64,000 nt of DNA from an uncultured Bacilli bacterium (GTDB lineage: Bacteria; Bacillota_I; Bacilli_A; RF39; UBA660): positions 625-64,624 of the forward strand of contig CANRBQ010000002.1 of assembly GCA_947628905.1 (NCBI GenBank). The letters are read 5' to 3'. The notes under the pieces were generated by a model. It did not search any database. It was not told where the DNA came from and was given only the letters and a program-made list of their open reading frames with translations. This document shows, one piece after another, positions 38,561 to 43,115 of the stretch. How positions within the stretch are numbered: the stretch's first letter is position 1; every line of letters starts with the position of its first letter. A program made the translations under genes and the position numbers.

Positions 38561-38684
38561 CGAAGTATGGATTAGAAAACACTTTTTGGGGGAGTGTAGG
38601 TTGGTGGTTCAAAATGACTCTTCATTTTGCTTACAAAACTTATAAAAATTTACTAATAGTAAACATAAACAATTGCCCTATATG

Positions 38685-38707
38685 CTCTCTATTTATTAGA
38701 GAGTTTT
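38685..38707 (+). terminator. terminator downstream of paralog 2
   Basis: CTCTCT / AGAGAG stem followed by TTTT. Confidence 0.6.
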
Positions 38708-38739
38708 AATATTACCATAAATTGTTAAATAAAAAGATA

Positions 38740-38778
38740 CGAATATTTGTTTACAAAGCATACATTTGTTGGTATAAT
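38740..38778 (+). promoter_or_regulatory. promoter with weak SOS-box-like element
   Basis: TTTACA(38750-55), 17 nt, TATAAT(38773-78) with TGG. CGAATATTTGTT (38740-51) overlaps the -35 and resembles GAAC-N4-GTT(C/T) with mismatches. Confidence 0.45.
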
Positions 38779-38795
38779 AATTCTAGGTGATATAA

Positions 38796-40010
38796 ATGAA
38801 ATTAAAAGAAAAATTAACTATTCTAGCCGATGCTGCCAAATATGATGCTTCTTGTTCCTCCAGTGGTAGTACCCGTAAAAATGAAAATGGTATAGGTAAT
38901 GCATCTTATTCAGGAATCTGTCACTCTTTTGCTAGTGATGGTAGATGTATTTCTTTATTAAAAATATTATTAACTAATTGTTGTATTTTTGATTGTAAAT
39001 ATTGTTTAAATAGAAAAAGTAATAATATTAAAAGAGCTATATTTACTCCTGAAGAAATATGTACTATAACTATGAATTTTTATCGTCGTAATTATATTGA
39101 AGGCCTATTTTTAAGTTCTGGTATTATTAAAAGTCCAGATTATACCATGGAATTAATCATAAAAACTATTTCTCTTTTAAGAAATAAATATCATTTTAAT
39201 GGTTATATTCATGCGAAAGCTATTCCTGGTTCTTCTGATTATTTAGTTAAAAAATTAGGTAAACTAGTTGATAGAATGAGTGCTAATATTGAATTACCAA
39301 CGGAAAGTAGTTTAAAATTATTAGCTCCTGATAAAAAAGAAACAAATGTTACCACGATTATGAAAACTATCAAAGAAAATCGTAACACCAAGTTTACTCC
39401 CGCGGGAAGTAGTACTCAAATGATAATCGGGGCTACTAACGAATCTGATTTAGATATTATGTCTAAAAGTAGTTATATGTATTCCAATTATAATTTAAAA
39501 AGAGTCTTTTATTCAGCCTATATTCCTCTTAATAATGATAAATTATTACCAACCTTAAAAACACCACCCCTAACAAGAGAACATCGCTTATATGAGGCTG
39601 ATTGGCTTCTTCGTTATTATAATTTTAAAGTTGAAGATATTTTATCAATAGATAATCCTAATTTTAATTTACTTATTGATCCTAAATCCGACTATGCCCT
39701 TAGACATTTAAATGAATTTCCCAAAGAAATTAATACTGCCTCTTATTATGATTTATTAAAAGTTCCTGGGATTGGTATAACATCCGCGAAAAGAATAATT
39801 AAATCTCGAAAATATTTTAAAATAACTTTTAAAGATTTAAAAAATATGGGAATAGTTTTAAAAAGAGCCAGTTATTTTATTACTTGCAATGGAAAGTATT
39901 TTATTAATAAATCTTTATTTAATAAAGAATTTATTGAAAATAACTTAGTTTTAGAAACCCATCAAATAAATAAACCATCTATAACCCAATTAAGTTTATT
40001 TAATGAATAA
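38796..40010 (+). CDS. putative DNA modification/repair radical SAM protein
   Basis: CIFDCKYC (CX3CX2C) cluster motif and a C-terminal helix-hairpin-helix LLKVPGIGITSAKRII. Confidence 0.8.
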   Translation: MKLKEKLTILADAAKYDASCSSSGSTRKNENGIGNASYSGICHSFASDGRCISLLKILLTNCCIFDCKYCLNRKSNNIKRAIFTPEEICTITMNFYRRNYIEGLFLSSGIIKSPDYTMELIIKTISLLRNKYHFNGYIHAKAIPGSSDYLVKKLGKLVDRMSANIELPTESSLKLLAPDKKETNVTTIMKTIKENRNTKFTPAGSSTQMIIGATNESDLDIMSKSSYMYSNYNLKRVFYSAYIPLNNDKLLPTLKTPPLTREHRLYEADWLLRYYNFKVEDILSIDNPNFNLLIDPKSDYALRHLNEFPKEINTASYYDLLKVPGIGITSAKRIIKSRKYFKITFKDLKNMGIVLKRASYFITCNGKYFINKSLFNKEFIENNLVLETHQINKPSITQLSLFNE

Positions 40011-40761
40011 AATGTATATATATGATGGTACATTTCTAAATCTTTTAAGTTTAATTACTTTCCTAATTAAAAATAATATTAAACCCACTAATATAGTTAA
40101 TTCTAATTATGAACCTACTCTTTTAGATGAAATAATTAATATAAATATTGTTAATAACCCTAAAATTATTAACAATATTAAAAATATTTGGGGTTTAGAA
40201 ATATATAAAATTATGTTATATGTTTATTTTTCTGAAGATTCATATAAAGAATTAATAATTTATTATTTATATTTAAATTGTTTAAAATATAAAAGAAATA
40301 CACTAAATATGAGAAATTTAAAATGTGTATCTAAATCTTTAAAAATAGCTAAATATGTTAGTAATGAAGCTCATAAATTAAAAGGATTTGTTCGTTTTAA
40401 AGAATTAGAAAGCAAAGTCTTATATGCTGAGATATCTCCCACTAATAATTGCTTGTTAATATTAAGTGAACATTTTAAAAAAAGACTATCCCATGAATAT
40501 TGGTTAATAAAAGATGTTAAAAGAAACATGATAAGTATATATGATAAAAAGAATTATTATATTATTCCCGCATCTAATTTAAAATTAAATATAGAATTAA
40601 ATAAAAATGAACTAGAATTTGCCGATTTATGGTGCACATTCTATAATACAATTGGTATTAAAGAAAGATATAATGCCAAATTAAGATTAAATTTTATGCC
40701 TAAAAAATATTGGCGATATATTTTAGAAATGAGTGATGAAAATGAAAAAAGTAATAAGTAA
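40003..40761 (+). CDS. probable DNA metabolism protein (DUF4130 / UDG-related partner of the radical SAM protein)
   Basis: Overlaps the radical SAM gene stop. Size and the conserved HKLKGFVRF / FYNTIGIKERYN-type motifs fit the family as I recall it. Confidence 0.6.
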   Translation: MNKMYIYDGTFLNLLSLITFLIKNNIKPTNIVNSNYEPTLLDEIININIVNNPKIINNIKNIWGLEIYKIMLYVYFSEDSYKELIIYYLYLNCLKYKRNTLNMRNLKCVSKSLKIAKYVSNEAHKLKGFVRFKELESKVLYAEISPTNNCLLILSEHFKKRLSHEYWLIKDVKRNMISIYDKKNYYIIPASNLKLNIELNKNELEFADLWCTFYNTIGIKERYNAKLRLNFMPKKYWRYILEMSDENEKSNK

Positions 40762-42268
40762 TGATAAATTAAGTGAAAAAATGAAAGAAGCTATAAAACT
40801 ACTATGTGAACCTGTCAAAATGACTTTAGGCCCTAAAGGGAGAAATGCGATAATTGATCATTCAGCTTTCTCCCCTTTTATAACCAATGATGGCGTAACT
40901 CTCGCTGAAAATATCACTAGTGAAGATCCTATCATTAATACTATTTTAGAGCTAGCTAAAGAGTCATCAATTAAAACTAATGAACTCATCGGGGATGGCA
41001 CTACTACTACTTTAGTATTATTAGAAAATCTTTATTTACAAGGATTTGAACAAATAAAAAATGGGGAAAATCCTCTTATATTTAAAGAAGAATTAGATAA
41101 CGCTATAAATGAAGTTATTAATTATATTAAAGAAGAAAGTCATACTCCTAATAAAGAAGAATTAAACCATATCGCATCTATCTCATCTAGTTCTAAAGAA
41201 ATAGGTAAAATTCTTGTTAATGCTTATAACAAAGTAGGTAAAGATAATATTTTTATTACTGAAGGAGAAGAAAAAACAACTATTAACTATCTAAATGGTT
41301 ATCAAATAGAAACTAATTTAGCCTCTCCCTATTTTTTAAAAAATAATCTAACTATAAAATATAGTAATCCTAAAATATTAATTTATGATAATGATATTAA
41401 TTATTTAGAAGAAATAAGTTTTCTAATAAACTATATTAAAGAAAAAGAAATACCATTAATAATAATTGCTAAAGATTATAATCCCCTTCTAATTAATAAA
41501 ATAATAGATTTATATTTAAATGATAATATTCCTCTTATATTATTAAAAACCCCTTATTATGGTATAGAAGAACAAATAACTCTAAATGATATAGCTAAAA
41601 TATCTAATACTATTATTTATAAAGATTTAAATAATTTTAATTATAATAATTTAGGAACTTTAGAAAGTATTAGTATTAATAAAGAATTTACTAATTTAAA
41701 ATTTATTAAAAATAAAGAATTAAATATATATTTAAAACAAATTAAAAAAAATATCAATTCTAAATCTGATTTTGATATTAAAAGAATCGCTATGTTAAAT
41801 AAAGGTATTATAGAAATTAAAGTGGGAGCTCCTACTACTACCGAACGAAGAGAAAAAAAGATGCGTTATGATGATGCTTTATGTTCTTTAAAAATAGCTA
41901 AAGAAGGAGTTACAACTGGAGGTGGTTTAACTTATTTAAAGTGCAGTGCTAAATTATCCAATAAAAATCCTGCTTATCTTGTCTTAAAAGAAACATTAAA
42001 AAAGCCATTTGCTCAAATATTAACAAACGCAGCTTTAAACCCCCAAGATATATTTAATAAAATTCTTTCTTCTAATTATAGCTTAATATACAATGTTAAA
42101 AAAAATAATTATGAAGAAGTGAATAACACTGAAGTTATCGACAGTTCTAAAGTATTAATCATGGCTTTAAAAAATGCCTCATCTATTGCAAGTATGCTTT
42201 TAACAACTAATACTTTAATCATAAATGAATTTATAGAACCTAAAGAATCAATTATAAATGAAATATAA
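40733..42268 (+). CDS. divergent Cpn60/GroEL-family chaperonin homologue (no GroES, no GGM tail)
   Basis: VKMTLGPKGRNAII, ITNDGVTLA, GDGTTTT, SPYF, VGAPTTTERREKKMRYDDAL and TTGGG align colinearly with GroEL equatorial and intermediate motifs. Start is 40733 or 40742; both overlap the upstream gene. Confidence 0.8.
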   Translation: MMKMKKVISNDKLSEKMKEAIKLLCEPVKMTLGPKGRNAIIDHSAFSPFITNDGVTLAENITSEDPIINTILELAKESSIKTNELIGDGTTTTLVLLENLYLQGFEQIKNGENPLIFKEELDNAINEVINYIKEESHTPNKEELNHIASISSSSKEIGKILVNAYNKVGKDNIFITEGEEKTTINYLNGYQIETNLASPYFLKNNLTIKYSNPKILIYDNDINYLEEISFLINYIKEKEIPLIIIAKDYNPLLINKIIDLYLNDNIPLILLKTPYYGIEEQITLNDIAKISNTIIYKDLNNFNYNNLGTLESISINKEFTNLKFIKNKELNIYLKQIKKNINSKSDFDIKRIAMLNKGIIEIKVGAPTTTERREKKMRYDDALCSLKIAKEGVTTGGGLTYLKCSAKLSNKNPAYLVLKETLKKPFAQILTNAALNPQDIFNKILSSNYSLIYNVKKNNYEEVNNTEVIDSSKVLIMALKNASSIASMLLTTNTLIINEFIEPKESIINEI

Positions 42269-42272
42269 ACTC

Positions 42273-43115
42273 TTATTTTGCTTCAATATCAAAATCAATA
42301 AATCTAATACCTAATTTTCTTTTTCTAATATCTCTTTTAATATTTAATTCAGCATTAATTAAAGTTTTAATATCATATTTTTTACTAACTACTATCCCTA
42401 AAATTAAATGATAATAAGAACCTTGTTTAATTAAAGTTATTTTATTAACTTTAATATTTTTATATCTATTAAATATATTAATAATTTCATTTTCAATTTT
42501 TTCATTTTTAGTATTAACTCCTATTAATAACATTGCATTTTGAAATATTATCTTAATAGCTTGATAAATAATTAATAAACCAATTGCTAAACTCCCAATC
42601 ATATCAGCTTCTCTAAATATTTGACTAACTAAAATAACTAATATAAGAACACTTGAAGATATAACATCTAAATATGATTCTTTACTAGAAGTAATAAGAA
42701 TACTACTATTAATCTTTTTACCTACTCTAGCTAACATATTTGAGCTATAAAGCTTTAATCCTATTGCAATTAATATAACAATAATAACTAATAAATTTGG
42801 TTTATTATAATACATATTAAAACTTAAAAAAATAATTACTAAACCAACTAACATAATAAGAAATCCCATGATCATTTGCATTATATATTCAAAATTACCA
42901 TAACCAAAAGGATATCTCTTATTAGGCCTTTTCTTTCCAATTCTAGCCCCAATTAAAGCCAAAATATCAGTTATAAAATCACTAACAGTATAAAAACCAT
43001 CCGCGATTAATGACATAAATCCAAATATATTTCCTCCAATAATTTTAAGTAATGCTACCATAAAATTAATAACAGCACTAAAAACTATGGCTCTTTCTTC
43101 TGTTTTAACTTTCAT
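42273..43115 (-). CDS. cation diffusion facilitator (CDF) family transporter
   Basis: Six-TM core with ADGFYTVSD and a cytoplasmic C-terminal domain. Confidence 0.85.
   Translation of the reverse strand: MKVKTEERAIVFSAVINFMVALLKIIGGNIFGFMSLIADGFYTVSDFITDILALIGARIGKKRPNKRYPFGYGNFEYIMQMIMGFLIMLVGLVIIFLSFNMYYNKPNLLVIIVILIAIGLKLYSSNMLARVGKKINSSILITSSKESYLDVISSSVLILVILVSQIFREADMIGSLAIGLLIIYQAIKIIFQNAMLLIGVNTKNEKIENEIINIFNRYKNIKVNKITLIKQGSYYHLILGIVVSKKYDIKTLINAELNIKRDIRKRKLGIRFIDFDIEAK

Follow-up and report, generated by a model that had tools for sequence, protein, structure and literature searches.

A diverged, GroES-less chaperonin gene is joined to a predicted SOS-controlled radical SAM-DUF4130 operon in uncultured gut Bacilli

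Introduction

Genes for a radical S-adenosylmethionine (rSAM) protein and a partner of the DUF4130 or uracil-DNA glycosylase (UDG) type (TIGR03916 with TIGR03915/TIGR03914; COG4277-COG1573) form a cassette that occurs in many phyla and repeatedly within SOS regulons. SOS regulation of the COG4277-COG1573 pair has been reported for Verrucomicrobia, Alphaproteobacteria and Bacteroidetes (PMC8565304) and is discussed further in PMC3765255; an AlphaFold 3 model of a DUF4130:rSAM heterodimer, predicted to act on nucleic acid, is reported in bioRxiv 10.64898/2026.08.19.745780. Here, we analyse a 64,000-nt stretch of DNA (hereafter the window; contig CANRBQ010000002.1 of assembly GCA_947628905.1, G000:C2:625-64624 in our genome set) from an uncultured Bacilli bacterium with a 1.24 Mb, 94% complete assembly of ~26% GC, in which such a cassette is followed by a gene for a diverged group I chaperonin (Cpn60). 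The first two genes resemble the described cassette in that they score fully against their family models, are adjacent and overlapping, and stand behind a predicted LexA-type operator, as in other phyla. They differ from it in that no family-4-type UDG domain is fused to or next to DUF4130, and in that a chaperonin gene is fixed in third position (or in fourth, with groES, in the basal form of the operon), of which PMC8565304, PMC3765255 and bioRxiv 10.64898/2026.08.19.745780 make no mention. All components are of known kinds; what is new is their fixed union, the loss of GroES and an apparent switch of regulon. We found no description of the three-gene unit in the literature on TIGR03916, on DUF4130, or on GroEL combined with radical SAM and LexA, and the plain database label 'chaperonin GroEL' hides the peculiar status of the third gene.

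The usual picture of chaperonins is one of essential folding machines with a general role and a need for a lid. Diverged Cpn60s without an adjacent groES, for which narrower or altered roles have been proposed, include chlamydial GroEL2/GroEL3, mycobacterial Cpn60 paralogues and phage GroEL homologues; these orphan copies coexist with a canonical groESL in the cell or host, whereas here GroES is missing and the gene is welded to an enzyme operon. That a protein of the DNA-damage response can need a chaperonin is known from the Escherichia coli SOS polymerase Pol V, whose UmuC is stabilised by GroE (PMC6590174, citing Donnelly and Walker 1992). Pol V, however, uses the general heat-shock GroESL, which is neither encoded with its client nor SOS-controlled.

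The reading that we favour, at a probability of roughly 0.55, is that the operon in the window encodes an SOS-induced repair or modification enzyme pair together with a dedicated, GroES-independent chaperonin.

Three overlapping genes form one unit

Coordinates and profile scores bear out what the first-pass annotation of this DNA had described at the locus: three overlapping open reading frames for an rSAM protein with a CxxxCxxC motif (CIFDCKYC) and a C-terminal helix-hairpin-helix (HHH_3, residues 312-347), a DUF4130 partner, and a GroEL homologue that keeps GDGTTT, DDAL and GGG, lacks a Gly-Gly-Met tail and has no groES in front of it. The rSAM protein reaches 607 bits against TIGR03916 (cut-off 343.5), and the second protein 199 bits against TIGR03915 (cut-off 112) and 144 bits against PF13566. 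Calling this second gene 'UDG-related' was an overstatement: it consists of the DUF4130 domain alone, and a profile search found no UDG domain (PF03167) in the operon. A UDG partner encoded elsewhere and tracking the cassette was also rejected, UDG genes being present in all 41 genomes, cassette or not.

In the window, the stop of the rSAM gene and the start of the DUF4130 gene overlap by 8 nt, and Cpn60 starts ahead of the DUF4130 stop at 40761. A length of 508 aa in the public gene call implies ATG 40742 as the Cpn60 start; 40733 and 40736 are alternatives (508-511 aa). Among related loci, start and stop overlap at the rSAM-DUF4130 junction in 68 of 74 and at the DUF4130-Cpn60 junction in 71 of 75, which puts each junction above 90%; the median is -4 nt. 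The conserved overlaps argue that the three proteins are co-produced from one message with coupled translation. A promoter-like match ahead of Cpn60 (40619-40647) was given no weight, because 31 such matches compare with 44 expected from shuffled sequence.

The diverged Cpn60 is not found without the rSAM gene in the sampled genomes

The order rSAM-DUF4130-Cpn60 is kept in all 76 related loci that are long enough to judge, and their flanking genes differ. Carriers are uncultured gut Bacilli of rabbit, chicken, mouse, goat and human, with record titles that include 'Mycoplasma sp. CAG:776', 'Candidatus Caccenecus avistercoris' and 'Candidatus Ventrenecus stercoripullorum'. Identity to the window proteins is 71-90% for rSAM (80 species), 42-77% for DUF4130 and 35-68% for Cpn60; CysS, in loci carrying cysS, is 76-89% identical.

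Co-occurrence was assessed in 401 genomes of the order, spanning 145 genera, at least 85% complete and nearly all from one family. Cpn60 was present in 72 of them and a strong TIGR03916 match in 70; the diverged Cpn60 and rSAM occurred together in 69, always on one contig and ~800 nt apart, contig breaks excepted. The diverged Cpn60 was never found without rSAM (0/401). Three genomes with Cpn60 only (G222, G332, G397) carry a canonical groES-groEL instead, and in the single rSAM-only genome (G395) the rSAM gene is cut by the contig end. Cpn60 is lacking from 82% of the sample, and 328 genomes have neither Cpn60 nor rSAM. Confident Cpn10 matches were limited to 5/401 genomes (a further, marginal one being in G422), and among trio-bearing genomes of the sample PF00166 was found only in G262, which has a four-gene form of the operon (see below). 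Taken together, the 328 genomes with neither and the 69 joint occurrences indicate that the family, taken as a whole, has no need of a chaperonin and that the diverged copy is bound to the cassette.

Within the 1.24 Mb of the window's assembly there is no match to Cpn10 (PF00166), no second Cpn60 and no canonical groES-groEL elsewhere. This supports the earlier proposal that the gene is the organism's only, fast-evolving GroEL after loss of the GroES linkage, a proposal with which the long branches reported below also agree. The case that would have spoken against the first-pass annotation, a linkage unique to this genome and with it a displaced housekeeping groEL, does not hold: the linkage recurs in every judgeable locus and in 69 genomes, and most of the sample has dispensed with chaperonins.

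Two isolated occurrences of groES were noted. G010, of the same genus as the window, carries the trio plus an unrelated pair of a low-GC groES and a 540-aa GroEL that is 35-39% identical to any canonical GroEL (L144, C137:5100-7700); it is the only trio-plus-GroES case outside the four-gene form, and the additional pair may stem from a phage, a contaminant or another paralogue. In G068, a genome without any Cpn60, a groES (L158:2925-3227, on C1; PF00166 85 bits) lies among phage-like genes and is probably an orphan, prophage-borne co-chaperonin.

The trio is patchily distributed, being found in 28 of the 145 genera, and at least six genera are polymorphic (g1, g35, g28, g70, g86 and g80), with the genes gained or lost together. 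In the window's own genus, G013 has secG-75 bp-cysS where relatives carry the trio, and in G014 and G001 the trio is absent at cysS; these empty or altered syntenic sites ruled out assembly gaps as the cause of missing trios. Patchiness, differing flanks between genera and so clean an empty site are what one would expect if the trio moved as one piece of DNA, in which case joint presence and absence would say nothing about functional dependence. We consider such a mobile island very improbable: the borders show no sign of an integrase, repeats or a tRNA, the secG-cysS location is stable within the genus, and the Cpn60 branches from the family's own GroEL (see below). Mobility would also leave the unbroken gene order and the overlaps unexplained.

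A few trios appear damaged. Cpn60 is split into 260 and 215 aa in G082 (C16:3817-4958) and has a one-base frameshift at L157:3291-4903, while the rSAM gene contains one TAA in G316 (C9:44930-46123) and is split into 320 and 96 aa in G003 (C7:25936-27109). These may represent either early decay or assembly errors of metagenome-assembled genomes.

The chaperonin descends from the family's own groESL

Phylogenetic placement of the Cpn60 (IQ-TREE, LG+C20) put all diverged copies into one clade (support 100/99). Its sister group consists of the canonical GroELs of the same family (100/98), and GroELs of other Bacilli fall elsewhere. Branches of the diverged copies are 5-10 times longer, with tip lengths of 0.3-1.1 as compared to 0.02-0.2 among canonical GroELs. 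The family's few canonical groESL operons are of low GC (27-32%) and have a CIRCE element (controlling inverted repeat of chaperone expression) before groES; their GC content and separate clade ruled out contamination as their source.

At the base of the diverged clade stands G262, in which four genes, rSAM-DUF4130-groES-groEL, are all joined by ATGA-type overlaps. Its GroES has 88 aa (PF00166 52 bits), and its GroEL bears a one-base frameshift in an A-rich run that is either real or an assembly error. Three further public contigs contain the same four-gene operon with an intact GroEL of 535-538 aa, and the four-gene operons already carry a LexA-type box, for instance GCAAACAAACGTTTGC. On the next branch, G109, groES is gone, and the later members, including the window, follow. 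The tree and the four-gene intermediate together show that the lineage's own groESL was captured behind an rSAM-DUF4130 operon and subsequently lost groES. Of the earlier alternative, a recruited paralogue acting with the DNA-metabolism pair, the tie to the cassette stands, but 'paralogue' does not, since the gene is the lineage's own groEL, relocated.

Additional chaperonin copies were encountered in two other genomes. G033, a class-level relative, has a normal groESL plus an extremely diverged 480-aa Cpn60 paralogue (L145, C23:31000-33300; branch 3.96), which was left out of the final tree owing to its very long branch. G222 has two canonical groES-groEL operons, one of them on a 4.2 kb contig beside a transposase-like open reading frame (L147, C27:1-4000).

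Conserved ATPase residues and a remodelled apical domain

The window Cpn60 falls below every NCBIfam GroEL cut-off (TIGR02348, 315 versus 582 bits; best subfamily NF009487, 337 versus 352 bits), and the GroEL2/GroEL3 models match it with only 83-93 bits. Its fold is nevertheless that of a chaperonin subunit: an AlphaFold2 model (mean predicted local distance difference test score 88.4, predicted template modelling score 0.75) shows the full three-domain architecture, and Foldseek aligned it to the GroEL/Hsp60 subunits 4v4o, 9es0, 8wuw and 1aon with template modelling scores of 0.89-0.91.

For residue-level comparison, 74 clade members were aligned to E. coli GroEL, with the register of the reference sequence verified at 40 literature positions. 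Residues of ATP binding and hydrolysis (T30-P33, D52, G86-T91 (GDGTTT), D398, G414, G416 and D495) are kept in 67-74 of the 74 members and in the window protein, where D398 lies within YDDAL and GGG is retained; G415 varies among clade members, and N479 is another kept residue of the nucleotide pocket and catalytic site. The hinge glycines 192, 375 and 410 are likewise kept, and the intra-ring stem-loop (residues 35-48) is nearly invariant. By contrast with canonical GroEL, conservation does not extend to the inter-ring contacts R452, E461, S463 and V464, the salt bridge R197-E386 is gone, and no Gly-Gly-Met repeats occur at the C-terminus, the window protein ending in ...LIINEFIEPKESIINEI.

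Divergence is greatest in the apical domain, with a mean identity of 33% within the clade versus 53% among canonical GroELs. At the positions examined in the hydrophobic groove of helices H and I, to which GroES and substrates bind in GroEL (Y199, Y203, F204, L234, L237, L259, V263 and V264), the GroES-less clade retains hydrophobic residues at Y203, F204, L237, L259 and V263 but has S/A in place of L234 and S/N (D in the window) in place of V264. Further residues typical of this clade are L/I199, N238 instead of E238, L/I265 and K/T386. The GroES-bearing link form, on the other hand, keeps Y199, L/V234, L237, E238, L259, I263, L264, N265, R268 and E386, and G109 is intermediate; remodelling of the groove tracks the loss of groES. 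Between close species pairs, the ratio of nonsynonymous to synonymous substitution rates (dN/dS) is 0.10-0.31 for Cpn60, 0.04-0.09 for rSAM and 0.10-0.21 for DUF4130. Conserved ATPase, hinge and stem-loop residues, an altered apical domain and these dN/dS values together argue for a selected, probably ring-forming ATPase whose lid and substrate surface has been rebuilt.

A surface this changed could also mean that Cpn60 is no folding helper at all, but an integral, ATP-driven subunit: a ring that loads, shields or remodels rSAM on nucleic acid, or one with damaged protein-DNA substrates. Such a subunit would be in keeping with the strict stoichiometric coupling and co-occurrence, and also with the extent of apical change, the appearance of clade-specific conserved residues (such as N238 and L/I265) and the loss of GroES. 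We nonetheless regard it as rather unlikely, given that the four-gene ancestor, with its normal-looking groES-groEL and canonical groove, points to ordinary folding as the starting role; moreover, the apical domain is still diverging within the clade, no new conserved surface has settled, and no DNA-binding feature was detected.

The promoter carries predicted LexA operators in place of CIRCE

The first-pass annotation had noticed LexA-like boxes at the promoter, and comparative evidence supports it. A lexA gene is present in this genome (G000:C31:11353-11964) and in nearly all relatives. In the lexA promoters of the genus, AATACAWTTGTTTGACA covers the -35 hexamer, another box stands between -35 and -10, and a third one is often found upstream (ATACATTTGTTCG). 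The operon promoter is laid out in the same way, with CGAATATTTGTTTACA over -35 and ATACATTTGTTG before -10. Box 1 is by far the most conserved promoter element across related loci (CGAAC/CAAAC-AAAT-GTTTG, mostly 56-60 nt before the start codon). Of 79 related operon promoters, 74 have a matching box equally far from the start codon (consensus CGAACAAATGTTTG). Box 2 corresponds in position and form to the second box of the lexA promoters and is kept in the nearest relatives, for example as ACGAACGTATGTTGC in L038.

A matrix built from the operon boxes of 74 other species, this genome excluded, was used to scan the whole genome at a threshold of at least 13 bits. Of 17 distinct sites returned, the operon's box 1 scored 16.5 bits, and the highest-scoring ones stand before recA, two dinD-like genes, uvrA, the gene of an uncharacterised membrane protein and the rSAM operon. 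Since boxes taken from the operon alone lead to recA, uvrA and dinD, members of the classical SOS regulon, the promoter box is very probably a LexA operator. Outside the window, predicted SOS sites of G000 are at C31:6352, C17:19212, C41:1142, C1:50720 and C1:26540. The membrane protein of this predicted regulon is 332 aa long and Ser/Asn-rich, and its box is the most palindromic (CGAACATATATTTG).

CIRCE precedes every canonical groES of the family, whereas none was found in the four-gene operon loci tested (L157, L159-L161). A genome-wide scan of G000 returned CIRCE matches only at hrcA, clpB and hsp20 and none at the rSAM operon. The HrcA/CIRCE heat-shock regulon is thus intact in this genome but without the chaperonin, which would have moved from HrcA/CIRCE to LexA control. 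The CIRCE sites of G000 lie outside the window, at C5:28826, C7:20179 and C15:774, and belong to hrcA (two copies), clpB and hsp20.

This apparent switch bears on a further alternative, in which a housekeeping groEL came to lie behind the cassette by chance and survives as a relic general chaperonin with several clients or a role in stress protection, on its way to loss. The gene is after all the sole Cpn60 of its genome; constraint on it is relaxed relative to rSAM, most of the family is already without chaperonins, and some copies look broken (G082, G262). A relic of this kind should, however, have left cassettes without Cpn60 or diverged Cpn60s without the cassette, and neither is seen in 70 cassette-bearing genomes. 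Strong constraint on the ATPase and ring residues, the shift from heat-shock control to an SOS operator and persistence across at least 28 genera speak against it as well, and we consider it quite unlikely.

A proposed dedicated chaperonin for a damage-induced enzyme pair

In the mechanism we favour, LexA would repress the operon, and DNA damage would induce the three proteins in coupled amounts. The rSAM/helix-hairpin-helix enzyme and its DUF4130 partner would make up a nucleic-acid repair or modification enzyme. By joining the end of the rSAM-DUF4130 operon, groESL would have exchanged HrcA/CIRCE for LexA control; groES would then have been lost and the apical GroES/substrate groove of the chaperonin reshaped, with its ATPase, hinges and ring-forming stem-loop retained. 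Today's Cpn60 would act as a GroES-independent, ATP-driven ring that, upon damage induction, folds, holds or assembles the TIM-barrel-like iron-sulphur rSAM protein, the rSAM-DUF4130 complex, or both. TIM-barrel folds dominate among the obligate clients of GroE (PMC9950496), and Mollicutes otherwise tolerate losing GroE (PMC5810989). With GroESL on its way out, a lineage could have retained the cassette only with a chaperonin made alongside it, and a chaperonin freed from its other clients could have lost its lid and evolved fast. The series would thus run from a heat-shock groESL through capture behind an SOS cassette, loss of groES and acceleration to loss of the whole unit in most lineages.

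A stricter version, to which we give somewhat less than even odds and which we put forward tentatively, is that of a single-client chaperonin: general GroEL/GroES would have been abandoned, with one copy surviving only because rSAM-DUF4130 cannot mature without it, and later becoming lid-free and damage-controlled. If true, the TIGR03916/TIGR03915 enzyme would be a chaperonin's obligate client wherever it occurs, and the operon would represent a minimal system for GroES-independent chaperonin action.

Several points weigh against a dedicated chaperonin. Adjacent genes can disappear in one deletion, and co-loss alone is weak evidence of functional dependence; more weight attaches to the finding that 70 genomes include no uncoupled survivor, to the conservation of the overlaps, to purifying selection and to the switch of regulation. 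The amino-acid composition that comes with low GC may make the diverged copies group more strongly with the canonical GroELs of the family than they should, as composition warnings for the tree indicate. At the four-gene stage, the operon copy is the only groESL of its genome and may have had a general folding role. No encapsulation cycle is known without GroES, and the groove is short of two key hydrophobic positions (L234, V264). Separate expression of Cpn60 from an internal promoter may occur.

For chaperonin biology, the locus would illustrate that the general role can be dropped and one copy kept, rewired and remodelled for a seemingly single enzyme system, with the intermediates still extant. 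For the rSAM-DUF4130 cassette, a built-in helper points to co-expression of the third gene as a way to soluble, active enzyme, and dependence on a chaperonin may have hampered earlier work on this cassette.

Sequence features of the operon

The control region and genes of the operon are listed in Table 1. Directly downstream, no terminator-like hairpin was found between the Cpn60 stop (42268) and a convergent cation-efflux gene (42273-43115, minus strand), whose end follows after 4 nt.

Table 1 Positions of the operon and its control elements within the window
Feature	Position	Strand	Details
Terminator-like hairpin of the upstream surface-protein gene	38684-38704	+	8-pair stem, then T run; 5' limit of the operon control region
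Conserved A/T-rich motif ACCATAAATTGTTA	38714-38727	+	family consensus ~AAAAATTnCCA; 13-26 nt upstream of the LexA box
Predicted LexA operator 1, CGAATATTTGTTTA	38740-38753	+	overlaps the -35 hexamer
Sigma-70-type promoter, TTTACA-17-TATAAT, extended -10 TG	38750-38778	+	11/12 matches; best promoter-like site of the region
Predicted LexA operator 2, ATACATTTGTTG	38760-38771	+	between -35 and -10
Shine-Dalgarno sequence AGGTGAT of the rSAM gene	38785-38791	+	GGTGAT 5-8 nt before ATG in nearly all loci
rSAM/helix-hairpin-helix protein, putative DNA modification/repair radical SAM enzyme	38796-40010	+	404 aa; TIGR03916, PF04055, PF12836
DUF4130 protein, partner of the rSAM enzyme	40003-40761	+	252 aa; TIGR03915, PF13566
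Diverged group I chaperonin (Cpn60) without GroES	40742-42268	+	508 aa; PF00118 171 bits

The A/T-rich motif recurs in most related operon promoters (at the same position in L037-L116 and L160) despite differing flanking genes, and may serve as an UP element or be bound by a second regulator.

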